A DNA stretch of 62,810 bases, the filler included, from Thermodesulfobacteriota bacterium (GTDB lineage: Bacteria > DASVDK01): NCBI GenBank assembly GCA_036381125.1. It is 4 parts of 4 records of this genome, joined end to end, with 100 filler letters (N's around TTAATTAATTAA, not from the genome) between each part and the next. Parts side by side here need not be neighbours in the genome. Positions count along the whole stretch, not along the records: positions 5,848 to 20,892 come from DASVDK010000118.1; 3 more parts are not named here. One strand, 5' to 3'. Under the pieces are notes generated by a model, which was given only the letters and a program-made list of their open reading frames with translations, was not told the origin of the DNA and did no database searches. Of this stretch, positions 5,748 through 21,372 are shown one piece after another; positions within the stretch are counted from its first letter, which is position 1, and every line of letters begins with the position of its first letter. The position numbers and the translations under genes were made by a program.

Positions 5748-5847
5748 NNNNNNNNNNNNNNNNNNNNNNNNNNNNNNNNNNNNNNNNNNNNTTAATTAAT
5801 TAANNNNNNNNNNNNNNNNNNNNNNNNNNNNNNNNNNNNNNNNNNNN
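5748..5847. other. Artificial contig-joining spacer
   Basis: 44 N + TTAATTAATTAA (stops in all six frames) + 44 N. Confidence 0.98.
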
Positions 5848-7182
5848 GACGACGACGACGTCGAGCGTGGCCCCCGGCCGCTTGAGCTTGAGCCAGGCGC
5901 GGCCGCGCGTGCCGGGGAGGTAGGGCGACGAGGGGTCCTTGACCATGAGCCCCTCGTTGCCGCGAGCCCGGGCCTCCTCGAACCGCCGATCGAGGCGGGC
6001 CGCCGCGTCGTCGGCGCGCGTCTCGACCGGGTCGGCCGGGGAGAGGAAGAGCGGCGGCGAGAGCGGCAGCGCGGCCAGGCGCGCCCGCCGGGCCTCGAGC
6101 GGGGCGTCGAGCAGCGACCCGCCGGCGTCGATCAGGCAGTCGAAGGCGACGTAGACGACCGGCACCTCGCGCACGAGCGCCTCGGTCACGGCCTTGCGGC
6201 CGAGGCGCCGCTGGAGCTGACCGAAGGGGAGGGCCCGGCCGTCGCGCCACGCGAGCACCTCGCCGTCCAGGATGAGCGGCCCCGGCAGGCGCGCCAGGGC
6301 GGTCGCGACCTCCGGGAAGCGGCCGGTCACGTCCTCGAGGCGCCGCGAGAAGAGCGCCACGCGACCGTCGGCGCCCACGTGGGCCGTCGTGCGGACGCCG
6401 TCGAGCTTGTCCTCGACGAGCGCCGCGCCGTCGATCCGCCGCAGGGCATCGGCCGCATCGGCCGCCGGCGTGGCGAGCATGACCGACGTGGGCCGGAAGA
6501 GGACCGGGGCCGCCTCGTCGAGCCGGCCCGCCTTCGCGAGACGCGCCGCCTCGCCCACGTCGCCGCCGAGGAGCATCGCCGCGCGCTGGATGGCGGCGAG
6601 CGGCGCGCCGAAGGCGACGCCGAGCGCCTCCTCCACGAGGCGCTGCTTGAGGCCGATCCGGAGGTCGCCCCCCGCGATCTTGAGGAGGTACTTCGCCTCG
6701 GCCGGCGAGGCGCGGTGCAGGAGCGCGCCGAAGCGGGCGGCCCTGGCGCCCGGACCGCGGGCGGCCGCGATCCGGTCGAAGGCGGCGCGGGCGTCGAGCA
6801 GCGCGACGCCGGTCGGCGCCGCGTGCGGGGCTTCGGCCCGCTCCCCCCGGCGGCTCGCCTCGGCGGCGGCGCTCGCCGCCTCCCGGCGTCCGGCGAGCAG
6901 CCGTTCCGCGGCCGAGCCGAGGTCGCCCGTCCTGAGCGTCTCGGCGTCGATGGCGGCGGGGTCGAGCGCGGCGGCGCCGGCCAGGGCGGCCCTGAGACCG
7001 GCGTACCCCAGGCCGAGGCTCCTCGGGTCCCAGGGCGGGAACGGGCGCCCGGCGAGGAAGGTGCAGGCGACCGGCAGCGAGGCGTCGTCGAGCGAGGCGA
7101 GGTAGGCCACGAGCGCCGCCCGCTTGGCCAGGCGGGAGCGCGTGGCGCCCACCGCCTCGCACGCGGCGGCGAAGGCACGCAT
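5848..7182 (-). CDS. lig: ATP-dependent DNA ligase, 3' end truncated by contig break
   Basis: Motif I EDKLDGVR, LFSRRLEDVT, ILDGEV, AFDCL, EGLMVKDP, YLPGTRGRAWLKLKR. Confidence 0.93.
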
Positions 7183-7282: not shown

Positions 7283-7303
7283 GCGTTTCTCTACGAGAAA
7301 CGC
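7283..7303. promoter_or_regulatory. Perfect inverted repeat, candidate IclR operator
   Basis: GCGTTTCTC-TAC-GAGAAACGC between the predicted promoter and first gene; operon encodes an IclR protein. Confidence 0.6.
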
Positions 7304-7338: not shown

Positions 7339-8607
7339 ATGCGTCTCGACGTCGCGTCCTTCCCGGTACGACGCGCCGAGCTCGGCGCGCGGACCCGCTA
7401 TGCGGACGGGGTCCTCACGATCGGCGTCGAGGCGGTGCGGTCGCTCGTCCTCCAGGACCCACGCGTTCGCGACGTCCGGCTCGAGGTCGTCCACCCGGGC
7501 GACTCGGCGAGGGTCCTGCGCCCCCTCGACGCGATCGAGCCGCTCCGCAAGGTCGAGGGACCCGGCAGCGCGTTCCCGGGGTTCAACGGCCCGCCCCACA
7601 CCTGCGGGCGCGGCCGGACCCACCGGCTCGAGGGGTTCTCGGTGGTCGAGGTCGCGGAGTTCCCGTTCCCGGCGAGCGGCGTGCAGGCCGTCGAGGAAGG
7701 GATCATCGAGATGACCGGACCCGGGGCCGCCTACGCCGGCTGCGCCGATCGCGTGAACCTGCTCCTCGTCTGCACGCCGGGACCGGCGTCGAGCAACGAC
7801 GACTACGACGACGCGGTCCGGCGCGCGGGGCTTCGGGTCGCCGACCACCTGGCCGGGGCGACGATCGGCCTCGAGCCGGTCCGCGTGGAGCGCTTCGAGC
7901 TCGCCGGCGTGCGGCCCGGCCTGCCCCGGGTGGTCTGGGTCCACCAGGTCAGGAACCAGGGGCCGATGGTGCGCACGTTCCTCTACGGTCACGAGATGGC
8001 GAACCTCGTGCCGACGGTGCTCCACCCGAACGAGCTGCTCGACGGCGCGCTGGTGGGCGCCAACTACAAGACCGGCACCAAGACGCCGACTTACATGCAC
8101 ACCCGCCACCCGTCCCTCGAGTCGCTCTACGCGCGGCACGGGCGGGACCTCGAGTTCGTCGGCGTCGTCGTCTCCCGGGGGCACCACGAGAACGAGTTCC
8201 TCAAGGAGCGCTCCGCGCACTTCGTGGCGAAGCTGGCCGGCATGCTCCGCGCGGACGGGGCGCTCTGCACGTACGAGGCGACGGGGAACACCCACGTGGA
8301 CTTCATGCTGACGGTGCAGGCGCTCGAGCGAGCGGGGATCCGGACCGGGGCGGTCGTGCACGAGTACGGCGGGCCGGAGGGGACCGACGCCCCGCTCGTC
8401 GACTTCGCGCCGGAGGCGATCGCCCTCGCCAGCAGCGGCGGCATCGATCGGCGCATCCGCCTGCCGGCGGTCGAGCGGCTCATCGGCGGGACCCACCTGG
8501 CGCACCGCGGCATCCCGGCCGGGGGGGAGATCGAGGTCAGCATCCAGGAACTGTACGCGGTGACGGCCGAGATGAACCGTCGCGGCGTCGTGGCGCAGGA
8601 ATACTAG
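7339..8607 (+). CDS. Glycine/sarcosine/betaine reductase component B proprotein-type subunit (GrdE/GrdG/GrdI family), lacking the pyruvoyl-forming Cys
   Basis: GGAGG RBS; DAIEPLRKV, GRGRTHRLEG, IIEMTGPGA, TFLYG, PTVLHPNELLDGA, YARHGRDLEFVGVV; 422 aa; directly upstream of grdB-like gene. Confidence 0.88.
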   Translation: MRLDVASFPVRRAELGARTRYADGVLTIGVEAVRSLVLQDPRVRDVRLEVVHPGDSARVLRPLDAIEPLRKVEGPGSAFPGFNGPPHTCGRGRTHRLEGFSVVEVAEFPFPASGVQAVEEGIIEMTGPGAAYAGCADRVNLLLVCTPGPASSNDDYDDAVRRAGLRVADHLAGATIGLEPVRVERFELAGVRPGLPRVVWVHQVRNQGPMVRTFLYGHEMANLVPTVLHPNELLDGALVGANYKTGTKTPTYMHTRHPSLESLYARHGRDLEFVGVVVSRGHHENEFLKERSAHFVAKLAGMLRADGALCTYEATGNTHVDFMLTVQALERAGIRTGAVVHEYGGPEGTDAPLVDFAPEAIALASSGGIDRRIRLPAVERLIGGTHLAHRGIPAGGEIEVSIQELYAVTAEMNRRGVVAQEY

Positions 8608-8609
8608 CG

Positions 8610-9932
8610 ATGCGAGTCGTCCACTACCTCAATCAGTTCTTCGGCGGCATCGGCGGCGAGGACCGGGCCGACGCGCCGCCGCAGGCGCGCGAGGGGGCGG
8701 TCGGGCCGGGGCTCGCGCTCGAGCAGGCGCTCGGCGGCGACGGGCGGGTCGTCGGGACGGTCGTCTGCGGGGACGGGACGTTCGCCGACCGACCCGACGA
8801 GGCGGCGGCGGAGGTCGTGGCCCTCGTCGAGCGGTTCGCCCCCGACGTCGTGGTGGCCGGGCCCGCCTTCAACGCGGGCCGCTACGGCCTCGCCTGCGGG
8901 CGGGTCTGCGTGGAGGTGGAGCGGCGGCTCGGCCGGCCGGCGCTGACGGGGATGTACCACGAGAACGCCGCCGTCGAGCTGTACCGGCGGGACGTCGTGA
9001 TCGTCTCGACCAGCGCCACGGCCGGCGGCATGCGGGCGGCGATCGAGACCATGGCGCGGCTCGCGAGGACGCTCGGGCGAGGGGAGGCGCTCGGGCCGGC
9101 CGCGGTGGAGGGCTACCTTCCGCGCGGCCGCCGGATGAACGGCCGGGCCGGCCGGCCGGCCAGCGCGCGCGCCCTCGACCTGCTGATGGCGCGCCTGGCC
9201 GGTGAGCCGTTCGAGACCGAGGTGCCGCTGCCGACGTACGCGCCGGTCGCCCCGCCGGCGCCGGTGGCCGACCCCGCCGGCATGCGCCTCGCGCTCGTGA
9301 CGGAGTCCGGCCTCGTCCCGCCGGGCAACCCGGATCGGCTCGAGTGGGTGCGGGCGAGCAAGTGGCTCAGGTACAGCCTGGCCGGCAAGGACGACCTCGG
9401 GCGCGGCGAGTTCGAGGTGGTCCACAGCGGCTACGACGCCTCGTTCGCCCTCGACGACCCGGACCGGCTCTTGCCGGTGGACGCGGTCCGCGAACTCGTG
9501 CGCCTGGGGGAGATCGGCTCCCTGCTCGACGCCTATTACGTCACGTGCGGCAACCACGGCATCCTCGGGCAGATGGAGCGGTACGGCCGCGAGATCGCGA
9601 CCGAGCTCCGCGAGCAGAACGTCGACGCCGTGCTCCTCGTCGCCACCTGAGGGTCGGGCACGCGTAGCGGCGCTACGCTCGCGAAGGAGCTGGAGCGGGC
9701 CGGGCTGCCGACCGTCACGGTCACCAGCCTCCCGTCGGTCGCCCTCAAGGTCGGCGCCAATCGGGTCCTGCGCGGCCCTCGGTTCAGCCATCCGTGCGGC
9801 AACCCGGCCCTCGGCGAGCGGGACGAGCGGGCGTGGCGGATCGAGTTCCTGCGTCACGCCGTCCGGGCGCTGGGGACGCCGGTCACCGGTCCGACCCTCT
9901 TCGACCCTACCGGGACCGGGGGGCAGGCATGA
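8610..9932 (+). CDS. grdB: Reductase selenoprotein B (GrdB/GrdF/GrdH family), Sec at codon 347
   Basis: MRVVHYLNQFFGGIGGED, AGPAFNAGRYG, MYHENAA, DPDRLLPVD; in-frame TGA 9648-9650 then GSGTRSGATLAKELERAGLP...VGANRVLRG..FSHPCGNP (conserved GrdB C-terminus) to TGA 9930-9932, overlapping the next ATG. Confidence 0.92.
9662..9678 (+). promoter_or_regulatory. Putative bacterial SECIS of grdB-like gene
   Basis: GCGTAGC-GGC-GCTACGC perfect 7-bp stem beginning after an 11-nt spacer from the UGA; loop starts with G; uses CGT and GCT codons that are uncommon here. Confidence 0.75.
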
Positions 9933-11359
9933 CCTTCCCGGTCGTCACCGCCGTCGCGAACGTGCTCGCCCACGCGCCGGGGCTGGTGCGCTACGGCTCG
10001 AGGCCGGTGCGCGACCTCGCCCGTGATCCCTCGCGTGCCGGGACGCTCGCCGGGCACCTCCGGCCGTACGAGGACGCGGTTGCGTACGGGCCGAACCAGG
10101 CGTACGTCGGCAACCTCGCCCCCGAGGCGCTGCGCGACGTCGCCCGTCCCTGGTTCCGGAGCCTCGACCGGTCGGCGCCGGCCGACGGCGAGTTCGGCAG
10201 CCTGATCGGCGAGGCCGAGCTGCTCGGGCTGCTCAAGCTCTGCGACCGGGCCCAGCTCGTCCAGCTCGACGAGCCGACCCTGGCGGCCGGCGGCGCCCGG
10301 CTGATCGCGAGGCGTCTGGCCGACGCGGACGCGGTCGGGCGCCTTCGGGCGTCGCCGGCCGGCGCCATCGAGCAGGCGATCGAGAGCGGCGAGGCGATTC
10401 CGCTCTGGCTCGGAGGACGGATCGTCGGCGCCGTCGCCCGCGGTCACGAGGAGGACGAGGCGCTCACCGCCAACGTCCTGCTCGAGAACCTTGCGGCCAA
10501 GGCCACGGGCGTCCTGGCGCTCCGGCACCTGCTGCGGCAGGTCGAGCGGCGCCTCGGACCGAACGACATCGACTTCGTCATCGCCGGGTCCGAGGAGGCC
10601 ATCGGCGACCGCTACCAGCGCGGGGGCGGCAACGTCGCCAAGGCGATCGCCGAGGAGGTCGGCCTCGCGCGCGCCACCGGCTTCGACGTGAAGGCCTTCT
10701 GCGCCTCCACGCTCTACGCGGTGGTCAACGCGGCGGCGCTCGTCCAGGCCGGCGTCTTCTCCCGCGTGGCGGTCGTGGCCGGCGGCTCGCTCGCGAAGCT
10801 CGGCATGAAGTATCGGGCCCACGTGGCCAGGGGGATGCCGATCCTCGAGGACGTGCTCGCCGGCATCGCGATCCTCGTCGAGCGGGCCGGCGCCGAGGGC
10901 CCGACCGTCCGCCTCGACACGCTCGGCCTCCACGCAACCGGGGCCGAGTCGTCGCAGCAGGCGGTGGTCGAGGCGCTCGTGATGGGGCCGCTCGCGAAGG
11001 CGGGATGCCGGCTGACCGAGGTGGACCGGTACGCGACGGAGATGCACAACCCGGAGGTCACCGAGCCGTCGGGCAGCGGCGACGTCCCGCTCGGCAACTA
11101 CCGGTTGATCGCCGCCCTCGGCGCCATGCGCGGGGACATCCCGAGGGACGGGATCCACGACTTCATCGCCCGGCACGGCCTGCCGGGCTACGCGCCGACG
11201 CAGGGCCACATCGCCTCGGCCGTCTGCTACCTGGGGCACGCGGTACGGGGCATGCGGGCCGGTCGTCTCGAGCGCGTCCTCTTCATGGCGAAGGGGAGTC
11301 TGTTCCTCGGTCGGATGACGCAACAGTCCGACGGCGTGTCGTTCCTGCTGAGTGCCTGA
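9929..11359 (+). CDS. grdC: Reductase complex component C beta subunit (GrdC, FabH-like fold)
   Basis: LLENLAAKATG, SEEAIGDRYQRGGGNVAKAIAE, FDVKAFCA, AKLGM, EMHNPEVTEPSGSGDVP, APTQGHI, KGSLFLGRMT..SDGVSF; ATGA overlap with grdB. Confidence 0.92.
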   Translation: MTFPVVTAVANVLAHAPGLVRYGSRPVRDLARDPSRAGTLAGHLRPYEDAVAYGPNQAYVGNLAPEALRDVARPWFRSLDRSAPADGEFGSLIGEAELLGLLKLCDRAQLVQLDEPTLAAGGARLIARRLADADAVGRLRASPAGAIEQAIESGEAIPLWLGGRIVGAVARGHEEDEALTANVLLENLAAKATGVLALRHLLRQVERRLGPNDIDFVIAGSEEAIGDRYQRGGGNVAKAIAEEVGLARATGFDVKAFCASTLYAVVNAAALVQAGVFSRVAVVAGGSLAKLGMKYRAHVARGMPILEDVLAGIAILVERAGAEGPTVRLDTLGLHATGAESSQQAVVEALVMGPLAKAGCRLTEVDRYATEMHNPEVTEPSGSGDVPLGNYRLIAALGAMRGDIPRDGIHDFIARHGLPGYAPTQGHIASAVCYLGHAVRGMRAGRLERVLFMAKGSLFLGRMTQQSDGVSFLLSA

Positions 11360-11372
11360 GCCGGAGGAACCC

Positions 11373-11834
11373 ATGGACCTGAAGGGCAAGCGCGTGCTCG
11401 TCATCGGTGAGCGCGACGGCGTGAGCGGGGCGGCGATCGAGAGCTGCGTCCGCAGCGCCGGCGCCGAGGTGGTGTACGTCGAGACCCAGTGCTTCGTCTG
11501 AACGGCGGCGGGCGCCATGGACCTTGAGGGTCAAGGTCGGATCAAGCAACTGGTGGACCGCATCGGCACCGACGGCGTCGTCGCCGTCCTCGGGGCGAAC
11601 TCCCCCGAGGCGGTGGAAATGGTCGCCGCCACGCTGAAGAACGGGGACCCGAGCTACGCGGGCCCGCTGGCCGGGGTCGCGCTCGGCATCCCGTCGTTCC
11701 ACGTCCTCGAGCCGGAGATCACCCGACAGATCGCCCCGGAGGTCTACGAGCGCGAGCTCGCGCTGCCGGCCCTGGCCATGGACGGCGAGGCGGTGACCGC
11801 GCCGGTCAGGGCGATCCGCGAGGGCAGGGCCTGA
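11373..11834 (+). CDS. grdA: Reductase selenoprotein A (GrdA), CxxU motif, Sec at codon 43
   Basis: GGAGG RBS; MDLKGKRVLVIGERDGV...TQCFV[TGA 11499-11501]TAAGAMDLEGQ...GDPSYAGPLAGVALG; canonical CFVUTAAGAMDLE signature; track ORF shows only the post-UGA half. Confidence 0.95.
11520..11538 (+). promoter_or_regulatory. Putative bacterial SECIS of grdA
   Basis: GACCTTGA-GGG-TCAAGGTC perfect 8-bp stem 18 nt after UGA; built from CTT/GGT/CAA/GGT codons atypical of this GC3-rich genome. Confidence 0.78.
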
Positions 11835-11840
11835 CCGCAC

Positions 11841-12686
11841 ATGGCCGCGCGCAAGGCTGCCGAGGCGGCCGCGCCGCTCCGTTCGGTGGACCGCGCCCTC
11901 GCCCTGCTCGAGTGCCTGGCCGGCCTCCCGCAGCCGGTGGCGCTGGGGGACCTCGCGCGCCGGCTCGTGGTGAGCAAGGCGGGGGCCTTCCGGCTCCTCG
12001 CGACGCTCAAGCGCCGGGGCTTCGTCCGCCAGCTCGAGGACGGGCGATACGCCCTGGGCCTCAGGTGCTGGGAGATCGGTTGGGCGGTGCTGGGGGAAGG
12101 CGGCATCCGGGAGGCGGCGGCGCCGATGATGGCGGCGCTGGTCGAGCAGACCGGGGAGTCGATCCACCTGGCCGTCTACGATACGGGCGACGTCGTCTAC
12201 ATCGACAAGCGGGAAGGTTCGCAGCCGGTGCGCGCCTACTCGCACGTCGGCGGCCGCGCGCCGGCCTACTGCGTGGCAACGGGAAAGGTGCTCCTCGCCT
12301 TCGCGGGCGAGGCCGAATGGGAGCGGGTGACGCGAGCCGGGCTGCGGCGCTTCACCCCTCGCACCATCGTCGACCCCGGTGACCTGCGGTCGGAGCTGGC
12401 CGCGGTGGTCGCCCAGGGCTACTCGCTGAACCGCGGCGAGTGGCGGGCGGAGGTCGCGGGGATCGCGGCGCCGATACGGGACTTCACGGGGAGCGTCGTC
12501 GCGGCGATCGGGACCTCCGGGCTGGCGACGCACTACACCGCGGCGCGCATCCGGCAGATGGTCCCGCAGGTGCAGGCGGCCGCGGCCGAGGTCTCGAGTC
12601 GACTCGGGTTCATCAGGAGGCGACAGGAGGGAGGCCATGGAACGGAAGCTCACGACGCTGTCGGACGCGGCCGGGCTCGTCGCTGA
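11841..12686 (+). CDS. IclR-family transcriptional regulator
   Basis: SVDRALALLE HTH, RLLATL..RGFV, TGESIHLAV, VVYIDK, PAYCVATGKVLLAF, GIAAPI; C-terminal tail overlaps next gene by 50 nt. Confidence 0.93.
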   Translation: MAARKAAEAAAPLRSVDRALALLECLAGLPQPVALGDLARRLVVSKAGAFRLLATLKRRGFVRQLEDGRYALGLRCWEIGWAVLGEGGIREAAAPMMAALVEQTGESIHLAVYDTGDVVYIDKREGSQPVRAYSHVGGRAPAYCVATGKVLLAFAGEAEWERVTRAGLRRFTPRTIVDPGDLRSELAAVVAQGYSLNRGEWRAEVAGIAAPIRDFTGSVVAAIGTSGLATHYTAARIRQMVPQVQAAAAEVSSRLGFIRRRQEGGHGTEAHDAVGRGRARR

Positions 12687-13476
12687 CGGGTCGACCATCG
12701 CCTTCGGCGGCAGCCTGCTGCACCGGATCCCGGCAAGCTTCGCGCGCGAGGTGGCCAGGCAGGGGCGGCGCGGTCTCCGGTTCGTCAAGCCGTCGGCGGC
12801 CTACGACCTCGACCTCCTCTGCGCGGCCGGATGCGTCTCGACGGTGGACGCCGGCATCGTCGCCATGGAGGGAGGCTTCGGGCTCGCCCCGAGCTACCGG
12901 GCGGCCGTGGAGAGCGGCCGGGTCACCGTCCACGAGCACGCCTGAATCTCGCTGGTCGCCGGGCTGCGGGCCGCAGCCTTCGGGATCCCGTTCATGCCGG
13001 TCGCCGGGATGCGCGGCAGCGACGTGCCGGCCGCCGGCGGCCTTCGCCTCGCAAAGGACCCCTTCACGGGGGAGGAGGTCTACGCGGCGCCCCGCCTCGA
13101 CCTCGACTGGGCGGTCCTGCACGTCCAGGAGGCCGACCCCCTCGGCAACGCGCGCGTCTACGGCACCCCGTTCTGGGACCGCGTGATGTCGCGGGCGGCC
13201 AAAGGGGTCATCGTGACGGCCGAGCGGATCGTGCCGACCGAGGAGCTGGCGCGGCAGCCCGAGCTGACGCTGGTCCCGGGGATCCTCGTGCGGGCGGTCG
13301 TCCACGCGCCGCACGGCGCCTGGCCGGCGAGCTGCACGCCGTACTACGAGATCGACCGGGCGGGCGTGGCCGCGTACCTCGCCGCCTCGGCCGACCCGGA
13401 GGCGCTCGGACGGCACCTCGAGACGACGGACGAGGCGCTGCGGCGGACGGCCGCGCGCGCGGCGGCGGAACGGTGA
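12637..13476 (+). CDS. Family-I CoA-transferase-like alpha subunit with in-frame UGA (putative Sec103)
   Basis: GGAGG RBS; track ORFs 12637..12945 and 12994..13476 are one frame split only by TGA 12943-12945; read-through gives VHEHA-U-ISLVAGLRAAAFGIPFMPV...DPFTGE...LHVQEADPLGN...VTAERIV...GAWP, a complete 279-aa GctA-like subunit ending in a GTGA overlap. Confidence 0.85.
12961..12979 (+). promoter_or_regulatory. Putative bacterial SECIS of CoA-transferase alpha gene
   Basis: G-GGCTGCG-GGC-CGCAGCC-T: 7-bp perfect stem plus G-U pair, 15 nt after UGA, same GGC loop as the grdB hairpin. Confidence 0.68.
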
Positions 13477-14204
13477 GCGCCGTGGCCGCCGGGACGCCGG
13501 AGACGATGATCTGCGCCATCGCGCGGCTCCTGCGCGACGGCGAGCGGGTGTTCCACGGGGTCGCCTCGGTGATCCCGATGCTCGCCGTGAACCTCGCACG
13601 GAGGGTCCACGCCCCGCGCCTGACCTACATCAACATCGCGGGCGGGATCGACCCCGCGCCGCGCTACCTGCCCGAGTCGAGCACCGACCCCGAGCTCGCG
13701 CGGGGGAGCGCGTCGATCTTCAACAACGAGGACTTCTACGACCTCTGCGCCCGAGGGGGGATCGACGTGGCCTTCCTCGGCGCGACGCAGATGGACGCCC
13801 TGGGACGGACCAACAACAGCGTGATCGGGCCGTACGACCGGCCGAAGGTCCGCCTGCCGGGCGGCGGCGGGGCGGCGGTCGTGCTCCCCACCGCGCGTCG
13901 GGTGATCGTCTGGCGCACGGTCCACACGCCGAAGGTCTTCGTCGAGCGGCTCGACTTCGTGACCGGGGTCGGCAACCTCGACCGCGTGGTGACCCCGCTC
14001 TGCGTCTTCCAGCGGCGGGACGGACGGCTCGCGGTCGAGTCGATCCACCCGGGCCACACGCGCGAGGAGGTGGCGGCCCGGACCGGCTTCGCGCTCGAGA
14101 TCCCGCCCGACGTCCCGACGACCCCGCCCCCGACGGAGGCCGAACTCGCGGCGATCGAGGCGATCGACCCGCGCGGCGTCCGCCGGATCGAGTTCGGATC
14201 GTGA
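13473..14204 (+). CDS. Family-I CoA-transferase-like beta subunit (GctB-like), catalytic Glu apparently absent
   Basis: GTG 13473; IARLLRDGE, ARRVHAP, DVAFLGATQMDALGRTNNSVIG, RLPGGGGA, FVERLDFVT, VVTPLCVF, HPG, TGF, IDPRG. Confidence 0.88.
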   Translation: MSAVAAGTPETMICAIARLLRDGERVFHGVASVIPMLAVNLARRVHAPRLTYINIAGGIDPAPRYLPESSTDPELARGSASIFNNEDFYDLCARGGIDVAFLGATQMDALGRTNNSVIGPYDRPKVRLPGGGGAAVVLPTARRVIVWRTVHTPKVFVERLDFVTGVGNLDRVVTPLCVFQRRDGRLAVESIHPGHTREEVAARTGFALEIPPDVPTTPPPTEAELAAIEAIDPRGVRRIEFGS

Positions 14205-15718
14205 CGCCGACGCTCGGGGAAGCGCTGGCGCGGCAGGCGGCCCGGGCGGATCTGCGCGGCCGCCCCTTCATCCTGACCGACGGGGACGCGATCACCTTCG
14301 GCGACCTCGACCGCCTGGCGGCGCGCGTCGCCGGCCGGCTCGCCGAGGCGGGCGTCCGGCCGGGCGACGTGGTCTCGGCGCTCCTGCCGAACTCGCCGGC
14401 CTTCGTCGTCGACATGTTCGGCGCGTACCGGGCCGGGGCCCGCTTCTGCCCGCTCAACCCGCGCCTGACGCCGACGGAGATCCGCTTCCAGCTCGCGGAC
14501 TCGGGGGCGCGCGTGGTGGTGACCGACGCCGAGCACGCGCCGCTCTTCGCGCGGCTCGCCGCGGAGCTCCCCTCCCTCGCGCACGTCCTGGTCCTGGCCG
14601 ACCGGGAGGACCTCGCGGGGCTGCCCGATCCCCCGGGCGCCGCCCCGTCCGCCGTCGAGGATCCCGACGCGGTCGCGCTCGTGATGTACACGTCGGGGAC
14701 GACCGGCTCGCCCAAGGGGGTGATGCTGTCGCACCGGAACGTCCTCCTGAACGCCTCGCAGGTCATGGAGCGGAGCGAGGTGACGGCGGACGACCGGGTG
14801 CTCCACATCATGCCGCTCTTCCACACCAACGGCATCGTCAACACGACCGTGGGCCCGCTCCTCGCCGGCGCCTCCATCGCGCTCCGGCCGCGCTTCGACC
14901 TCGCCGACTTCTGGCCCGCGGTGGCCCGCTTCCGGCCGACCTACTTCACCGGCGTGCCGACCGTCTACAGCCGCTTGCTCGCCGCGCCCGATCCGGGACT
15001 CGACCGGTCGTCGCTCCGATTCGTCCGCTGCGGGTCGGCGCCGATGCCGGTCGAGCTCCAGGAGCGGGTCGAGGCGTGGCTCGGCGTCCCGGTCGTCATC
15101 AGTTACGGCCTCGCCGAGGGGACCTGCACGAGCACGATGAACCCCGTGTCGGGCCGGCGCAAGGTGGGATCGGTGGGGCTGCCGCTCTCGGGGCAGGAGG
15201 TGAGGATCCACGACGACGCCGGGCGCGAGCTGCCGGCCGGCACGGTGGGCGAGGTCTGCATCCGCGGGGGGACCGTCATGCAGGGGTATCTCAATCGGCC
15301 GGAGGAGACCGCCGCCGTCCTTCGCGACGGCTGGCTCCGGAGCGGCGACCTCGGCTACCTCGACGCCGACGGCTATCTCTTCCTGACCGACCGGAAGAAG
15401 GACATCATCATCCGGGGGGGCGAGAACATCTCGGCGCGGGAGGTCGAGGACGTCCTCTACCGACACCCGGCCGTCCTGGAGGCCGCGGTCGTCGGCGCGC
15501 CCGACCCGGATCTCGGCGAGCAGCCGGTGGCGTGCGTGGTGCCGCGGCCGGGCGCGACCATCGACGCGGGCGAGCTGATCGAGTTCTGCCGCGAGCGGCT
15601 CGCCCGCTTCAAGACGCCGCGTCGCGTCGTCGTCCTCGACGACCTGCCGAAGAACGGCGTCGGCAAGATCGTGAAGGCGGCGCTTCGCGAGCGGGTCGGC
15701 GGGGGGAGCGCGCCGTGA
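14201..15718 (+). CDS. Acyl-CoA synthetase (AMP-forming, ANL superfamily)
   Basis: YTSGTTGSPKG, PLFH, SYGLAE, GWLRSGDLG, DRKKDIIIRGGENI, LPKNGVGK. Confidence 0.95.
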   Translation: MTPTLGEALARQAARADLRGRPFILTDGDAITFGDLDRLAARVAGRLAEAGVRPGDVVSALLPNSPAFVVDMFGAYRAGARFCPLNPRLTPTEIRFQLADSGARVVVTDAEHAPLFARLAAELPSLAHVLVLADREDLAGLPDPPGAAPSAVEDPDAVALVMYTSGTTGSPKGVMLSHRNVLLNASQVMERSEVTADDRVLHIMPLFHTNGIVNTTVGPLLAGASIALRPRFDLADFWPAVARFRPTYFTGVPTVYSRLLAAPDPGLDRSSLRFVRCGSAPMPVELQERVEAWLGVPVVISYGLAEGTCTSTMNPVSGRRKVGSVGLPLSGQEVRIHDDAGRELPAGTVGEVCIRGGTVMQGYLNRPEETAAVLRDGWLRSGDLGYLDADGYLFLTDRKKDIIIRGGENISAREVEDVLYRHPAVLEAAVVGAPDPDLGEQPVACVVPRPGATIDAGELIEFCRERLARFKTPRRVVVLDDLPKNGVGKIVKAALRERVGGGSAP

Positions 15719-16146
15719 CGTACCGCGACTGGTACGGCGCGCTGGCCTTCCTCCTCGCCTCGGCTGCCGTCGTGGCCGGGGCGATCCGACTCGGCGTCGG
15801 CACGCTGCGGGATCCCGGTTCGGGATTCGCGCCGCTCGCGTTCGCGGCGGTGCTCGGGCTCCTCTCCGTCATCCGGCTCGTCGGGACCATCCGCGCGGCG
15901 CCGTACCGGGTCGAGGGCCGGTGGCTGCGGGTGGCGGCGGTCTGCATCCTCCTGCTCGCGTGGGGCCTCGCCGTGCAGACGGTCGGCTACCTGGTCGCCA
16001 CGTTCCTGGTGGCCATAGGCTTCGTGCTGGTCGGCGGCCGCTCCGTCTACGCGGCGCTCGCCTTCGGCGTGGGGGCGGCCCTCGCGGTCGAGTTCGTCTT
16101 CGTGCGCTGGCTCGCGACGCCGCTGCCGCGCGGGACCCTCTTCTAG
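15715..16146 (+). CDS. tctB: Tripartite tricarboxylate transporter small subunit TctB
   Basis: GTG 15715; LGVGTLRDPGSGFAP, four hydrophobic segments, C-terminal WLATPLPRG; directly before tctA. Confidence 0.82.
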   Translation: MTYRDWYGALAFLLASAAVVAGAIRLGVGTLRDPGSGFAPLAFAAVLGLLSVIRLVGTIRAAPYRVEGRWLRVAAVCILLLAWGLAVQTVGYLVATFLVAIGFVLVGGRSVYAALAFGVGAALAVEFVFVRWLATPLPRGTLF

Positions 16147-16149
16147 GCC

Positions 16150-17646
16150 ATGGAGACCCTCGACCTCCTCGCCCAGGGCTTCCAGGTCGCCCTCACGCCG
16201 ACCAACCTGCTCTTCGCGCTCGTCGGCGTCACGGTCGGCACGCTCGTCGGCGTCCTCCCGGGGCTCGGACCCTCCGGCGCGCTCGCCATCCTCCTGCCGA
16301 CGACCTACCAGGCGTCGCCCGTCTCCTCGATCATCATGCTCGCCGGCATCTACCACGGCGCCATGTACGGCGGGTCGACGACCTCGGTCCTCGTGAACAT
16401 CCCGGGCGAGGCCTCCTCGGTGGTGACCTGCCTCGACGGCTACCAGATGGCGCGCCGGGGTCGCGCGGGACCGGCGCTCGGGATGGCCGCGTTCGCGTCG
16501 TTCATCGCCGGCACGCTCTCGCTCGTCGGGCTCATCCTCCTGGCCCCCCCGCTCGCCGCCTTCGCCCTGCGCTTCGGGCCGACGGAGTACTTCGCCCTGA
16601 TGGTCGCCGGGCTGGTGATCCTCTCCTACATGACGCACGGGTCGATGGTGAAGGGGCTCATGATGGCGGCGGCCGGCCTCGTCCTCGGCACGGTCGGCCT
16701 CGACACCATCACCGGGCGTCCCAGGTTCACCTTCGGGCTGACCGAGCTGTCGGACGGGATCGGCTTCCTGCCGATGGCCATGGGGCTCTTCGGGATCGCC
16801 GAGGTCCTGGTCGGCCTCGAAGGGGGAGAGAAGCGAGACGTGTACACCGGAAGGCTGCACGGGCTCCTGCCGACTCGGCGCGACTGGTCGGAGTCGGGCC
16901 TTCCGATCGCGCGCGGCTCGGTGATCGGCTTCCTCCTCGGGATCCTCCCCGGCGGGGGGGCGGTGCTGTCCTCCTTCGTGTCGTACGCGGTCGAGCGGCG
17001 CCTCGCCCGGCGGCCCGAGGAGTTCGGGAAGGGGGCGATCGCCGGGCTGGCCGGACCGGAAGCGGCCAACAACGCCGGCTCGACGGGCGCGTTCATCCCG
17101 ATGCTGTCGCTCGGGATCCCGTCGAACTCGGCGACGGCGATTCTCCTCGGCGCCCTGCTGATCTACGGTGTGCAGCCGGGGCCGCTCCTCATGCGGACGC
17201 ACCCCGACCTCTTCTGGGGGGTCGTCGCGAGCATGTACCTCGGCAACCTGATGCTGCTCATGCTCAACCTTCCGCTCATCGGTCTCTGGGTGCGGCTGTT
17301 GAGGGTGCCGTACGACTATCTCTTCCCGGCGATCCTCCTCTTCTGTCTCGTGGGGGTCTACAGCGTCAACAACAGCACGACCGAAGTCCTGCTCATGGTC
17401 GCGTTCGGCCTCCTCGGCTACCTCCTGCGGAAGGCCGGCTTCGACCCGGCGCCGATGGTGCTGGCGCTCATCCTCGGGCCGATGCTCGAGCTGAACTTCC
17501 GGCAGGCGCTGATCCTGAGTCAGGGTGACCTGACGGCGTTCGTCCGGCACCCGATCGCGGCCGTGTTGCTCCTCGTCGCGGCCGTCCTGCTCGTGCTCCC
17601 GATCGTCCAGGACCTTTCCAGGAAGAAAGGAGACCGTCATGCGTAG
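16150..17646 (+). CDS. tctA: Tripartite tricarboxylate transporter large subunit TctA
   Basis: GTLVGVLPGLG, GAMYGGSTTSVLVNIPGE, DGYQMA, PEAANNA, LSLGIP. Confidence 0.95.
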   Translation: METLDLLAQGFQVALTPTNLLFALVGVTVGTLVGVLPGLGPSGALAILLPTTYQASPVSSIIMLAGIYHGAMYGGSTTSVLVNIPGEASSVVTCLDGYQMARRGRAGPALGMAAFASFIAGTLSLVGLILLAPPLAAFALRFGPTEYFALMVAGLVILSYMTHGSMVKGLMMAAAGLVLGTVGLDTITGRPRFTFGLTELSDGIGFLPMAMGLFGIAEVLVGLEGGEKRDVYTGRLHGLLPTRRDWSESGLPIARGSVIGFLLGILPGGGAVLSSFVSYAVERRLARRPEEFGKGAIAGLAGPEAANNAGSTGAFIPMLSLGIPSNSATAILLGALLIYGVQPGPLLMRTHPDLFWGVVASMYLGNLMLLMLNLPLIGLWVRLLRVPYDYLFPAILLFCLVGVYSVNNSTTEVLLMVAFGLLGYLLRKAGFDPAPMVLALILGPMLELNFRQALILSQGDLTAFVRHPIAAVLLLVAAVLLVLPIVQDLSRKKGDRHA

Positions 17647-18592
17647 GCGCATTGCCCTGCTCGCCGCGGTGCTCGTCGGCTCGCTCGCCGCGACTGCTCG
17701 GGCCGACGACTTCCCGAGCCGAGCGATCACCCTGATCATTCCGACATCGCCGGGCGGCTCGGCCTCGGTGTCGGGGCAGATCATCGCCGAGGCGCTCAAG
17801 CGGGAACTCAAGCAGTCCGTCCTGATCGTGTACAAGCCGGGCGCCGCGCAGGCCCTCGGGACCGAGCAGGTCCTCAAGTCCCGCCCGGACGGCTACACGC
17901 TCGGCTGGACCTTCGAGCCGGACCTCGCCTCCAAGATGGTGGCCGACGGCAAGAGCCTCTCGTTCGGGAAGGGCGACCTGGTGCACCTCGGCGCCGCCGG
18001 CTTCGCGCCCTACTTCCTCTGGGTGAAGGCCGACGCGCCGTGGAAGACGCTCGACGAGCTGGTGGCCGCCGGGAAGCAGAAGGGCATCTCCTACAGCTCG
18101 TCCGGCGTCGCGACGATGGGCCACGTCTACGCGGAGATGTTCGTGCGCCGGGCGGGGATCAAGGCGACGCACGTCCCGTACCAGGGGGGAGGGCCGGCGA
18201 CGACCGCGCTGCTCGGCGGGCACGTCGACATGTCCGTCGGCTCGTACGGCCGCATGAAGCAGTACATGGACTCGAACCTCGTCCGGCCGCTCGCGATCCT
18301 CGTGGACGAGCGGCTGCCCGACCTCGCGGAGGTGCCGACGCTCGAGGAGCGGGGCCTCGACCTTCCCATCCAGGGCCAGATCTACCACCACCTCTTCGGG
18401 CCGAAGGGGATGCCGCCCGCGGTCGTCGAGACGATCACCAGCGCCTTCGAGCGGGCGGTTCGCGACCCGGCGACGCAGCAGGCGCTCGTGAAGGCCGGGT
18501 TCGACGGGCGGTGGCTGTCCGCGAAGGCCACGGAGGAGGCCTGGCTCAAGGACTTCGCCATCGTCGAGGAGGCGCTGTCGCAGATCAAGTAG
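17639..18592 (+). CDS. tctC: TctC/Bug family substrate-binding protein
   Basis: Signal peptide; FPSRAITLIIP.SPGG, KPGA, PDGYTL, HVPYQGGGPA..ALLGGHVD, VPTLEE. Confidence 0.92.
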   Translation: MRRRIALLAAVLVGSLAATARADDFPSRAITLIIPTSPGGSASVSGQIIAEALKRELKQSVLIVYKPGAAQALGTEQVLKSRPDGYTLGWTFEPDLASKMVADGKSLSFGKGDLVHLGAAGFAPYFLWVKADAPWKTLDELVAAGKQKGISYSSSGVATMGHVYAEMFVRRAGIKATHVPYQGGGPATTALLGGHVDMSVGSYGRMKQYMDSNLVRPLAILVDERLPDLAEVPTLEERGLDLPIQGQIYHHLFGPKGMPPAVVETITSAFERAVRDPATQQALVKAGFDGRWLSAKATEEAWLKDFAIVEEALSQIK

Positions 18593-18704
18593 GATCGGGG
18601 CTCCGGCGCGCCCCGCGCGCGCCGGAAGCCGCCCCCGGCGCGGGCCGCCTCGGAGGCGCTACCGGGAGGTCGGGTCGATGGTCCGCGGGCCGGGGAAGCG
18701 CCGG

Positions 18705-18836
18705 AAGTCCGCACCCACGCGATCCGGACGGGCGCCGGTCCCGAGAAGGCGGCCTCGAGCCAGGTCCGGCATCGATCGTGATGCGGCGACCGGAGATCGG
18801 AGGCGTGGAGGAGCACGTTGGCGTCGACAGCGTCAT
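18705..18836 (-). pseudogene. VapC (PIN) toxin remnant, frameshifted and truncated
   Basis: ATG 18836 is one base out of frame with VDANVLLHASDLRSPHHDRCRTWLEAAFSGPAPVRIAW (PIN N-terminus); similarity ends after about 45 codons. Confidence 0.7.
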
Positions 18837-19036
18837 CGCCGCAACGGCCCCTCGATCTGGTCGAGCAGCTCCTCGACGTTGTCGTAGCTCGGACCGGGCC
18901 GCAGCCCGCCGAGGTCACGGGTGCGGACCTCGAATCGGGCGGCCGGCGCCTCGCACCGGGAGGCGAGCCCGAGCCGCAACGCCTCGGCCTTCAGCTTCGC
19001 GGCGACGTCCGGGTCCAGGGTGAGCGTCGTTCGCAC
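18833..19036 (-). pseudogene. VapB-like (RHH) antitoxin, internally shortened
   Basis: GTG 19036: MRTTLTLDPDVAAKLKAEALRLGL...SYDNVEELLDQIEG; stop overlaps vapC ATG; central RHH helix appears missing. Confidence 0.6.
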
Positions 19037-19059
19037 ATCGTGCTGCTTTGTCCGATGCA

Positions 19060-19710
19060 TCACGAAGTCAAGTCGGCCGGGGCGCCGCGCGCCGCCGCCC
19101 GGAGCGCGGCGGTCCTCCGCTTCGCCGCGCGCCGCCAGACGCGGTAGCCGAGGAGCGCCGCCAGGGCGGCGGCGAAGAGGGCCGGCTCGCGCGTGTCGGC
19201 CTTGACGAGGAGGAAGTAATGGACCACGCCGAGGACGGCGGCGGGGTAGACGAGGTAGTGGAGCCGCTGCCAGCGCTTGCCGCCGAGGCGGCGCACCCAG
19301 CCGTCGGTCGAGGTGACCGCGAGCGGCACGAGCATGAGGAACGCCGTCATGCCGACGGTGATGTAGGGGCGCTTGACGATGTCGGCCCCGATGGCGCCCC
19401 AGTCGAAGAAGTGGTCGACGGCCACGTAGTTCGTCACGTGGAGCGCGACGTAGCCGAACGCCACGAGCCCGAGCATGCGGCGCAGCCGGATCGCCCGGTT
19501 CCACCGGGTGAGCTGGCGCAGCGGCGTGACGGCGAGGCTCGCCAGGAGGAGCGCGAGTCCCCACCAGCCGAGGAGCCGCGTGGCCGCCTCTATGGGGTTG
19601 GCCCCGAGCCGGTCGGTGAAGAACCAGTAGACGCCGTGGGCAAGCGGCAGGAGCGCCAGCCCGAAGACGATCGGCCTGACGACCCACCTGAACCGAAGCT
19701 CGGCGGACAC
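19060..19710 (-). CDS. msrQ: Methionine sulfoxide reductase heme subunit
   Basis: LGANPIE, LAVTPLR, RRMLGL..FGY..LH, KRPYITVG, PLAVTST, WQRLHYLVY. Confidence 0.95.
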   Translation of the reverse strand: MSAELRFRWVVRPIVFGLALLPLAHGVYWFFTDRLGANPIEAATRLLGWWGLALLLASLAVTPLRQLTRWNRAIRLRRMLGLVAFGYVALHVTNYVAVDHFFDWGAIGADIVKRPYITVGMTAFLMLVPLAVTSTDGWVRRLGGKRWQRLHYLVYPAAVLGVVHYFLLVKADTREPALFAAALAALLGYRVWRRAAKRRTAALRAAARGAPADLTS

Positions 19711-19712
19711 CG

Positions 19713-20675
19713 CTAGTAGTACGTCCTGAGGTCCATGCCGGCGTAGAGGCTCGCGACCTGCTCGGCGTACCCGTTGAAGGGGAGCGTGTCGCGCCGCCGG
19801 AACTCGCCGATGCGCCGCTCCGTCTTCTGGCTCCAGCGGGGGTGGTCCACCTCCGGGTTCACGTTCGAGTAGAAGCCGTACTCCGAGGGCTGGGCGGCGT
19901 TCCACGCCGTGGGCGGCATCCGCTCGACGAGCCGGATCCTCACGATCGACTTGATGCTCTTGAAGCCGTACTTCCACGGGACGACGAGCCGGATCGGCGC
20001 GCCGTTCTGGTTCGGCAGCTCCTTCCCGTAGAGGCCGACGGCGAGGATCGTGAGCGGGTGCATGGCCTCGTCGATCCGAAGCCCCTCGCGGTACGGCCAG
20101 TCGAGGATCCGCCGGCGCTGCCCCGGCATCTGCTCCGGGTCGTGGAGCGTCTCGAACGCGACGAACTTCGCGCGCGAGGTCGGCTCGAACCGCTCGAGCG
20201 CCTTGCCGAGCGGGAAGCCGATCCAGGGGACGACCATCGACCAGGCCTCGACGCAGCGCAGGCGGTAGATCCGCTCCTCGAGGGGGTGCGGCTTGACGAA
20301 GTCCTCGTAGGCGACGACGCCGGGCTTCGCCACCTCGCCCTCCACGGCGATCGACCAGGGCCTGACCCGGAGCGACCCCGCGTACCGCTTCGGATCCTCC
20401 TTGTCGGTGCCGAACTCGTAGAAGTTGTTGTACGAGCTGATCGCGTCGAACGAGGTCAGCGGCTCGTCGGTGGAGAGCGGGCTCCTGGTGAAGGCGAGCG
20501 TCCGGAGGGGGCGCGCCGGCTCGGCCGCGGTGGCGCCGCTCCCGTCGCGCGAGCAGCCGACGGCCGCCGCGGCGAACGCGAAGAGGCCGGTCTTGATGAA
20601 GCGGCGCCGCGCCGCGTAGACGCCCTCGGGCGTGATCTCGGACGAGGGGCTATCCGGCGGTCGCCTGATCAGCAT
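19713..20675 (-). CDS. msrP: Methionine sulfoxide reductase molybdo-catalytic subunit
   Basis: SEITPE..Y..RRRFIK Tat signal, [60 protein letters not shown] before ATG 20675. Confidence 0.96.
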
Positions 20676-20892
20676 GTGGCCTCCACTCACGGTCCCGGGA
20701 CCGATGCTCTGTGTCCCCTCGATACTACCAACCGCGGCCGCGATGCAAGCGCGAGACGGAGCGCGCCGTAACGCGGATCACCGCTCGGCCTGCTCGCCGG
20801 GAAGGCGCGCCTCCCCGCCACCCGCGCCGCCGGCCGGGCGGCGATCGGCAAAGGTCAGATGGCCCAAACCAGGTTCTGAGATAGACGAGCGC

Positions 20893-20992: not shown

Positions 20993-21372
20993 CGCTCTGC
21001 GCCGCCGATCGGCGGCGCGACGATCGGCCCTCGCGCTTCCGCGGCTTCGAGGCGATCGAGTCCCTGACCTATCGCAGCACGACCAACGTGGACACCGTCT
21101 GCCACTGGTGCCCGTGCAACTGCAAGCGGACCTTCATCGACGTCCGGCTCGCGGAGGGCAAGGGGCGGCCCTGGAGCAAGCTGCCGCTGGCGGAAGGCTG
21201 GGAGCGCGTCATCAGCGGCAACTCCTGCCCCAAGGGGCTCGTCGAGGACGTGAACGAGATGCGGGTGGTGAAGGGCAAGCTCGAGGAGGTCAAGCGTGCC
21301 TATCCGAACCTGGCCGAGGTGGTTCGCAAGGAGGGCTTCCGCCGACCGACCGGCCCCGTCCAGTCGGGCTAG
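20993..21372 (+). CDS. C-terminal part of a CoA-substrate-specific enzyme activase (BadF/BadG/BcrA-type), truncated at contig start
   Basis: FRGFEAIESLTY...CHWCPCNCKRTFIDV...ISGNSCPKG...PNL Cys-rich linker typical of this family. Confidence 0.65.

Follow-up and report, generated by a model that had tools for sequence, protein, structure and literature searches.

Does a run of eleven adjoining genes that brings together a glycine-reductase-like set, a CoA-transferase-like pair, an acyl-coenzyme A (acyl-CoA) ligase and a carboxylate importer encode one pathway or two? The locus that raises this question occupies positions 7339-18592 of a stretch of 62,810 nucleotides, filler included, which joins four parts of four records of the genome of a Thermodesulfobacteriota bacterium (GCA_036381125.1) and which, at its full length, we call the window; the locus itself lies on record DASVDK010000118.1. 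Its genes are, in order, the grdE-like and grdB-like genes grdE′ and grdB′, grdC, grdA, the regulator gene iclR, the alpha and beta genes of a pair with the CoA-transferase fold, a gene for an AMP-forming ligase, and tctB, tctA and tctC. Three of them, grdB′, grdA and alpha, require that a TGA be read through, as a predicted selenocysteine (Sec). An earlier note, made from the sequence alone, had combined all of these genes in one selenium-dependent pathway. Here, with moderate confidence, we favour a composite operon of two independently evolving modules that are very probably transcribed together here. The first, GrdE′-GrdB′(Sec)-GrdC-GrdA(Sec) with TctBAC, would be a glycine-reductase-like selenoenzyme with its importer. 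The second, comprising IclR, alpha(Sec)/beta and the ligase, would be an acyl-CoA unit in which the ligase makes a CoA thioester, and its alpha subunit, for which Sec is predicted, may belong to a new family of selenoproteins. Genome-wide statements are based on G001, the nearest genome compared, an independent assembly of 630 contigs that is 95% complete.

Selenocysteine codons and Sec machinery

The read-through codons are U347 of grdB′ (9648-9650), U43 of grdA (11499-11501) and U103 of alpha (12943-12945). All three TGAs are unchanged in G001, which supports the earlier count of three Sec codons, and 3′ of each lies a candidate Sec insertion sequence (SECIS) hairpin (Table 1). For bacterial SECIS elements, there is a usual rule for the spacing between the TGA and the stem. 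Rfam at gathering thresholds and ARAGORN gave no match in the window. The Sec genes named in the earlier note are all present in G001, namely selA (578 bits), selB (341 bits), selD (348 bits) and a tRNA-Sec (71.7 bits, with a gathering score of 47). The G001 selD gene (G001:C540:4053-4991, - strand) itself has one in-frame TGA and probably encodes a Sec-containing selenophosphate synthetase.

A candidate selenoprotein family with the CoA-transferase fold

Both subunits of the pair match PF01144 (75 and 78 bits, with a cut-off of 23). Full-length homologues of alpha are 50-62% identical to it, and all 23 that were aligned (alignment A1) carry Cys at the U103 position, within the motif E-H/N-A/S-C. 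A genome scan for the alpha/beta pair (alignment A2) yielded 80 loci with 81 alpha copies, in which the codon at this position is TGA in 20 and TGC or TGT in 61. At least 21 TGA-bearing members are spread over Chloroflexota, Methylomirabilota/Rokubacteria, Nitrospinota, Acidobacteriota and others. In a maximum-likelihood tree, the 21 Sec rows, the window included, all fall in one clade of 25 rows together with four Cys rows (Shimodaira-Hasegawa-like approximate likelihood ratio test, SH-aLRT, 98), and the tree requires three label changes.

The 11-mer TGCGGGCCGCA is found in 14 of the 20 TGA forms and in none of the 61 Cys forms, the encoded peptide being the same. In the TGA forms, the bases that encode GLRAA form the hairpin CUGCGG-GCC-GCAG, and the mean fold energy of the hairpin stretch is -14.7 kcal/mol, versus -10.7 kcal/mol in the Cys forms. 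A hairpin restricted to the TGA forms is the pattern expected of a SECIS element under selection, and we regard it as the strongest single argument for the predicted Sec.

Alternatively, the alpha TGA could be a true stop, the gene being broken or split into pieces of 102 and 160 residues. Gene callers do split it: public annotation divides TGA-form alpha genes in two, the three matches closer to alpha than the full-length homologues (P0035, P0080 and P0086) are fragments of 160-176 residues that start after the TGA, and an ATG at 12994 could begin a second piece in the window. The same TGA, however, recurs in 20 relatives of several phyla, so it is not an accident of one lineage. Additionally, the 16 codons from the TGA to the next ATG encode the conserved GLRAAAFGIPF, which would be lost in a split gene; Cys occupies the site in all other members, and the hairpin is conserved in the TGA forms only. 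With the Sec machinery present as well, we hold a true stop to be very improbable and retain the prediction of a Sec-bearing alpha subunit.

Of the 40 genomes with the alpha/beta family, 39 have SelA: 19 of 19 with the TGA form (one of which, G009, is unpublished) and 20 of 21 with the Cys form only. The family seems to reside mostly in selenium-using lineages. Full-text literature searches gave no paper on a CoA-transferase selenoprotein. As far as main texts go, no CoA term occurs in deep-Sep (2025), and a review of prokaryotic selenoproteins from 2026 refers to CoA in connection with other families only and lists no CoA-transferase in its table.

A second alpha/beta pair was found on a G001 contig (L077, 5893-7418). 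Its alpha is of the Cys form and 58% identical to that of the window; in the tree, the pair is placed among Cys forms only, and it adjoins a gene of 535 residues.

A fold without the transferase glutamate

The earlier note had taken the pair for a CoA-transferase, an identity that the active-site residues contradict. Among solved structures, the beta subunit is closest to AibB (5mzw_D), whose Cys56B replaces the catalytic glutamate of glutaconate CoA-transferase (PMC7756340, in excerpt). At this position, which we fixed by means of AibB Cys56B variants and a Glu-bearing beta subunit from a marine contig (L141), the window beta has Ile, and its relatives have Ile (69 of 74) or Val (5 of 74) and in no case Glu. 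Because the beta glutamate is missing, the alpha/beta pair should not be a true CoA-transferase. IpdAB, in which the beta glutamate is not conserved, is likewise not a transferase (PMC5380842, in excerpt); U103 of alpha aligns with a column that is Glu in Protein Data Bank entry 6co6 and Ala in 6coj, both of IpdA. As judged from these residues, the alpha/beta family adds to AibAB and IpdAB a third branch of the CoA-transferase fold that is not a transferase.

The nearest solved relatives of the ligase are feruloyl/fatty-acyl-CoA, oxalate-CoA and malonyl-CoA ligases. A ligase 35-41% identical to it adjoins the alpha/beta pair in 14 of the 80 loci, and in L031 the second module stands alone, in the order IclR (42% identical), ligase (41%), alpha (Cys form), beta and an ABC importer. 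Across clades, only two neighbours recur at alpha/beta loci, the ligase in 14 of them and an SDR in 10. Other neighbours (for example ScpA, PanE, PfkB, nitrile hydratase and amidohydrolase_2) were set aside, since they mostly reflect synteny within one Nitrospinota-like clade.

An atypical branch of the Grd family

The two products that would act on the substrate fall short of every substrate-specific NCBIfam model. GrdE′ reaches at best 244 bits on GrdG (cut-off 780), and it scores just 112 bits on FarE (NF053623), with a cut-off of 675, so it belongs to a different branch from FarE. GrdB′ lies below the equivalog cut-offs for glycine (TIGR01917, 408 versus 602), sarcosine (GrdF, 456 versus 800) and betaine (GrdH, 379 versus 775), and passes only the broad subfamily model TIGR01918 (433 versus 65). 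GrdA and GrdC exceed their equivalog cut-offs (183 versus 130 and 554 versus 450, respectively).

The divergence extends to hallmark residues of canonical reductases. Two GrdE cysteines are needed for self-cleavage to the pyruvoyl group (PMC10838667, in excerpt). GrdE′ has GANYKTG at the site that reads GNCVSAC in P0325, a canonical representative which reaches 631 bits with the GrdG model, and among 20 members of the GrdE′ clade (alignment A3) there is no invariant or near-invariant cysteine column. The canonical Sec motif of GrdB is UxxCxxC (PMC13188914 and PMC10838667, in excerpt). GrdB′ keeps the Sec and lacks both cysteines of the motif, which is replaced by U-G-S-G-T-R-S; all 55 relatives have TGA at the aligned Sec codon, and 52 of them have the motif UG(S/T)GTRS. 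The losses in GrdE′ and GrdB′, both of which also occur in FarE/FarB, fit a substrate that does not need a Schiff base. GrdA has the motif C40-F-V-U43, and the context CFV*T is found in all 26 relatives that cover the site.

The earlier description of an atypical Grd set without grdD is borne out: the best GrdD match in G001 reaches 20 bits, with a cut-off of 350. In five further genomes, which were reached via the alpha/beta family and are therefore not a random sample, the best GrdD matches score 20-35 bits, although GrdC scores 564-614 bits in each. GrdD performs the step in which acetyl-phosphate is formed. One query for a thioredoxin gene (trx) found none in the window, in agreement with the earlier note.

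This Grd set has many relatives. Among 1.84 billion cluster representatives, 264 relatives of GrdE′ were retrieved at E≤1e-30, of which 137 full-length sequences were aligned, and the protein collection holds many GrdE′ proteins, 67-77% identical, labelled Rokubacteria, Burkholderiales and Desulfobaccales. A metagenome scan for GrdE′ yielded 80 loci, of which 34 show 68-77% identity. Wherever the contig continues, GrdB′ follows GrdE′, and in several loci grdA, at times trx, and grdC come next. We assign the Grd part of the operon to an environmental branch that is widespread and unstudied.

An alternative is an ordinary reductase for glycine, sarcosine or betaine whose GrdD and thioredoxin are encoded at other loci. 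It would also account for GrdA and GrdC, which pass their equivalog cut-offs; moreover, thioredoxin may be encoded anywhere, and a relative (L108) has trx between grdA and grdC. Nevertheless, GrdB′ falls below the cut-offs for all three substrates, GrdE′ has no processing cysteines and GrdB′ no CxxC, neither G001 nor the five other genomes with GrdC yielded a GrdD, and the nearby transporters are of carboxylate rather than betaine or amino-acid types. We therefore consider an ordinary reductase extremely improbable and treat the Grd set as atypical in what follows.

In one locus of the 68% clade (L119, 7716-9995), a molybdopterin oxidoreductase gene of 759 residues ends exactly at the start of grdE′; a DASS symporter and a second grdE/grdB/grdC/grdA set then follow. 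The outer neighbours of grdE′/grdB′ (chemotaxis genes, GNAT, S8 peptidase, GFO/IDH oxidoreductase, HtrA and YifB) were considered as a clue to the substrate and proved too variable.

The importer and its link to Grd

TctA, TctB and TctC are all present and form a complete tripartite tricarboxylate transporter (TTT). TctC has no NCBIfam match and was not named by Pfam; its solved relatives include 4x9t, BugD, Bug27 and terephthalate-binding proteins. The earlier note had linked a carboxylate importer to the Grd genes, and the link recurs on other contigs: an orthologous tctC (53-61% identical) lies directly upstream of grdE′ in L100, L101, L104, L105 and L127, other TctC paralogues being only about 30% identical to the TctC of the window. 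In L100, L105 and L127 the order is tctA (68-73%)-tctC (57-61%)-grdE′-grdB′, and in L101 and L104 tctC is found alone. Near other relatives of GrdE′, there are DASS, TRAP or TAXI carboxylate transporters. There is thus fair evidence that the Grd′ substrate is an imported carboxylate.

One pathway or two modules

In the earlier note, the CoA enzymes were part of the Grd pathway and stood in for GrdD. Such a pathway, in which all eleven genes serve one imported carboxylate and the ligase and alpha/beta either replace the GrdD step or convert what Grd makes in the form of a CoA ester, has several points in its favour. No gap exceeds 13 bases over the eleven genes, the locus has only one importer and one regulator, and GrdD is absent. 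The second module is embedded between grdEBCA and tctBAC, which are neighbours in L100, L105 and L127, and G001 and contigs of two other studies share this order. Additionally, a distant Grd cluster (L141) has next to it a CoA-transferase pair of a different, Glu-bearing kind.

The comparative record argues otherwise. Grd genes adjoin the alpha/beta pair in one of the 80 loci, which is G001's own contig, so that the adjacency is seen in this lineage only and the recurrence that the earlier note had proposed to check is not found at any of the alpha/beta loci outside it. In 30 of the 40 genomes with the pair, a GrdE-like gene is absent at E≤1e-20, and the other ten have relatives of 35-50% identity only. 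Among 251 Methylomirabilota genomes, GrdE′ (E≤1e-120) occurs in 4 and alpha (E≤1e-60) in 19, with no overlap. Elsewhere, GrdD-less Grd′ clusters have the order grdE′-grdB′-grdA-trx-grdC and no adjoining pair. On balance, we judge a single integrated pathway unlikely.

For the composite operon, there are several points on the debit side. The second module is placed between grdEBCA and tctBAC, groups that are linked elsewhere, which fits integration better than chance juxtaposition; the window has a single importer, whereas the stand-alone module of L031 has its own; and the sign of co-transcription is gene packing. For this lineage, GrdD, trx and the Sec genes were tested in one genome, G001. 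With regard to the Sec of alpha, the fold energies of the three hairpin regions are unremarkable versus shuffles (z = -0.35, -0.89 and +0.63), so that the case for SECIS elements is a comparative one; the alpha tree comes from a quick search; and the column aligned with U103 is what we take to be the catalytic Glu105 of IpdA. With regard to the importer, an orthologous tctC occurs in 5 of the 27 GrdE′ clade loci at ≥68% identity that have at least 500 bases upstream; a further five of the 27 have a TctC-like gene of 26-31% identity.

The marine contig of L141 (3718-7681, 37% G+C) carries grdA-grdE-grdB (41-43% identical) followed by the CoA-transferase pair, an M20 peptidase and a luciferase-like monooxygenase. 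This pair has the beta Glu, with His at the U103 position, and hence is an ordinary transferase of another branch. L139, a sister contig of L141, has an amidohydrolase, an FAA hydrolase, SDRs and a creatinase-like gene instead.

Operon layout, borders and authenticity

Since the window has 73% G+C, plain lists of open reading frames (ORFs) are full of shadow frames, and the coding frame was chosen by third-position G+C. Based on this frame analysis, on translations and on start and stop checks, the eleven genes listed in Table 1 are all co-directional on the + strand, as the earlier note had described them, with intergene gaps of, in order, 2, -4, 13, 6, -50, -4, -4, -4, 3 and -8 bases; the 3′ end of iclR thus overlaps the alpha gene by 50 bases. 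Ten of the eleven were named by Pfam and NCBIfam profiles. Co-transcription of the eleven genes is likely, given their packing.

Table 1. Coordinates of the genes, candidate signals and flanking genes in the window
Feature	Position	Strand	Evidence or remark
ATP-dependent DNA ligase	5800-7182	-	divergent flank, unrelated to the cluster
Palindrome, perfect 9+9, GCGTTTCTC-TAC-GAGAAACGC	7283..7303	.	36 bases upstream of grdE′
grdE-like (GrdE′), 422 aa	7339..8607	+	PF09338, 346 bits
grdB-like (GrdB′), predicted selenoprotein, 440 aa	8610..9932	+	PF07355, 422 bits; TIGR01918, 433 bits
Candidate SECIS hairpin GCGUAGC-GGC-GCUACGC	9661..9679	+	3′ of the grdB′ TGA; one loop base differs in G001
grdC, thiolase-like beta subunit of protein C, 476 aa	9929..11359	+	NF040746, 554 bits, cut-off 450
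grdA, predicted selenoprotein A, 153 aa	11373..11834	+	NF040748, 183 bits, cut-off 130
Candidate SECIS hairpin GACCUUGA-GGG-UCAAGGUC	11520..11538	+	3′ of the grdA TGA; identical in G001
iclR regulator, 281 aa	11841..12686	+	PF09339 and PF01614
CoA_trans alpha, CoA-transferase fold, 279 aa	12637..13476	+	PF01144
Candidate SECIS hairpin GGCUGCG-GGC-CGCAGCC, 7-pair	12962..12978	+	19 bases after the alpha TGA, within the GLRAAA codons; identical in G001
CoA_trans beta, CoA-transferase fold, 243 aa	13473..14204	+	PF01144; best solved relative AibB, 5mzw_D
AMP-forming acyl-CoA ligase, 505 aa	14201..15718	+	PF00501 and PF13193
tctB, small membrane subunit of the TTT importer	15715..16146	+	PF07331, 51 bits
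tctA, large membrane subunit of the TTT importer	16150..17646	+	PF01970, 543 bits
tctC, periplasmic binding protein of the TTT importer	17639..18592	+	solved TTT binding proteins, best E 1e-40
MsrP-like gene	19713-20690	-	convergent flank

The palindrome upstream of grdE′ lies in an A+T-richer patch and, on the - strand, is scored as terminator-like as well. It is mostly kept in G001, where one arm base and one loop base differ, and we propose it as a candidate operator, possibly for the IclR regulator. A scan for sigma-70 promoters found none. Terminator-like sites occur at the level expected by chance (three on both strands versus 2.3 expected), and the + strand has only one, a weak 5-pair stem (16076-16090) within tctB.

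The earlier note had described the cluster as bounded by a divergent ligase and a convergent TA relic/msrQ. The borders exist, the convergent one being formed by the MsrP-like gene; the divergent ligase, on the other hand, is an ATP-dependent DNA ligase that has no role in acyl activation. Two ORFs in the interval 18600-19700 have no Pfam match.

G001 carries the genes of the cluster on three contigs with 92-94% DNA identity to the window. The run from grdC through grdA, iclR, alpha and beta to the ligase is bridged by contigs, about 94% alike, that come from two other studies (X3 record 13, which covers 11161-14739, and X7 records 25-27), so the gene order is not an assembly chimera. These contigs were used solely to bridge the junctions and have no bearing on the three TGA sites. 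Among the genomes searched, G001 is the only species representative of its GTDB phylum, which indicates that the lineage of the window is deep-branching and poorly sampled.

Beyond the cluster, the window contains three pairs of 44-base N runs whose members are 12 bases apart (5748-5791/5804-5847, 20893-20936/20949-20992 and 48801-48844/48857-48900), the first of which extends over the 3′ end of the DNA ligase gene. Directly after a masked stretch, a gene with a DUF2229 'CoA enzyme activase' domain (21296-22525, + strand) may be part of a system of the 2-hydroxyacyl-CoA-dehydratase type.

Proposed mechanism

The chemistry and the substrates of both modules are what we infer from the families of their genes. 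In the first module, the TTT system would import a carboxylate with a leaving group on C2. Following established Grd chemistry, the Sec of GrdB′ would attack C2 of the bound carboxylate and expel the leaving group, a displacement for which no Schiff base should be needed, because the pyruvoyl cysteines are absent. The resulting carboxyalkyl selenoether would pass to the Sec of GrdA, and GrdC would form a thioester while GrdA becomes oxidised, to be reduced later by thioredoxin. In the absence of GrdD, the thioester would be released by a route other than acetyl-phosphate. Its transfer to CoA, the simplest exit, or to water would be a departure from precedent.

In the second module, alpha/beta would act on the acyl-CoA made by the ligase, possibly through an acyl-Se intermediate or a Se-adduct, a type of step that is likewise without precedent. 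The Sec or Cys nucleophile of alpha would sit at the position that aligns with the active site of IpdA, and an active-site Sec/Cys in alpha points to covalent or redox chemistry on acyl-CoA.

A more daring scheme would connect the modules by a selenium relay, in which the carboxyalkyl group moves from GrdB′/GrdA via GrdC to a selenoester on Sec103 of alpha and leaves as acyl-CoA. We think it decidedly unlikely. If it were true, a Grd-type reduction would end in CoA chemistry rather than in acetyl-phosphate, and alpha/beta would be the first case of a selenoenzyme acting on CoA thioesters.

The environmental Grd-like branch, which has GrdC, no GrdD (six of six genomes) and carboxylate importers, may end differently from the textbook glycine reductase. 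With a complete set of E′, B′, C and A plus an importer in one operon, the locus offers a compact target for expression and substrate screening. If the Sec of alpha is real, a new selenoprotein family is being cut in two by public annotation.

Comparison with known systems

The Grd part resembles the clostridial glycine, sarcosine and betaine reductases in its GrdE, GrdB, GrdA and GrdC families, in the positions of Sec in GrdB and GrdA, and in the CxxU of GrdA, which is kept. In contrast to clostridial glycine reductase, it has neither the processing cysteines of GrdE nor the CxxC after the Sec of GrdB, and GrdD was not found in G001 or the five other genomes. It is also tied to a TTT carboxylate importer and belongs to soil and groundwater lineages.

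A closer parallel in these residues is FarE/FarB, the fluoroacetate reductase of Cloacibacillus porcorum MFA1, described as a variant of Grd protein B (PMC10838667, in excerpt). As in the Grd′ set, the CxxC is missing from its B subunit and the two cysteines from its E subunit, losses that the excerpt of the same source relates to a non-amine leaving group at C2 of acetate. Unlike the Far system, which according to that excerpt feeds the ordinary GrdA and protein C of its host, the operon of the window has its own grdA and grdC, and GrdD is missing.

As to the alpha/beta pair, GctAB (glutaconate CoA-transferase, 1poi) shares with it PF01144 and the two-subunit organization and is the best overall match of alpha (117 bits). 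It differs at two sites: where it has the catalytic Glu54-beta, all 74 relatives have Ile or Val, and where GctA has Ser, Sec or Cys is found here. AibA/AibB, the 3-methylglutaconyl-CoA decarboxylase of Myxococcus xanthus, has the CoA-transferase fold without the beta glutamate (PDB 5mzw) and acts on a CoA thioester rather than transferring CoA (PMC7756340, in excerpt). AibB is the best solved relative of beta at 117 bits, and AibA the second-best of alpha at 103 bits; AibB has Cys at the former Glu site, where Ile or Val is found here, and AibA has Gly, where Sec or Cys is found here. IpdAB, the actinobacterial hydrolase that opens the ring of COCHEA-CoA (6co6, 6coj and 6con), shares the fold and a beta glutamate that is not conserved (PMC5380842, in excerpt). 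Its key residue is likewise located in alpha and is Glu in place of the Sec or Cys, its similarity is low (93-97 bits), and the window offers no steroid-pathway context. Set against these three enzymes, the new element of the locus seems to be a Sec-bearing enzyme with the CoA-transferase fold, a candidate selenoprotein.

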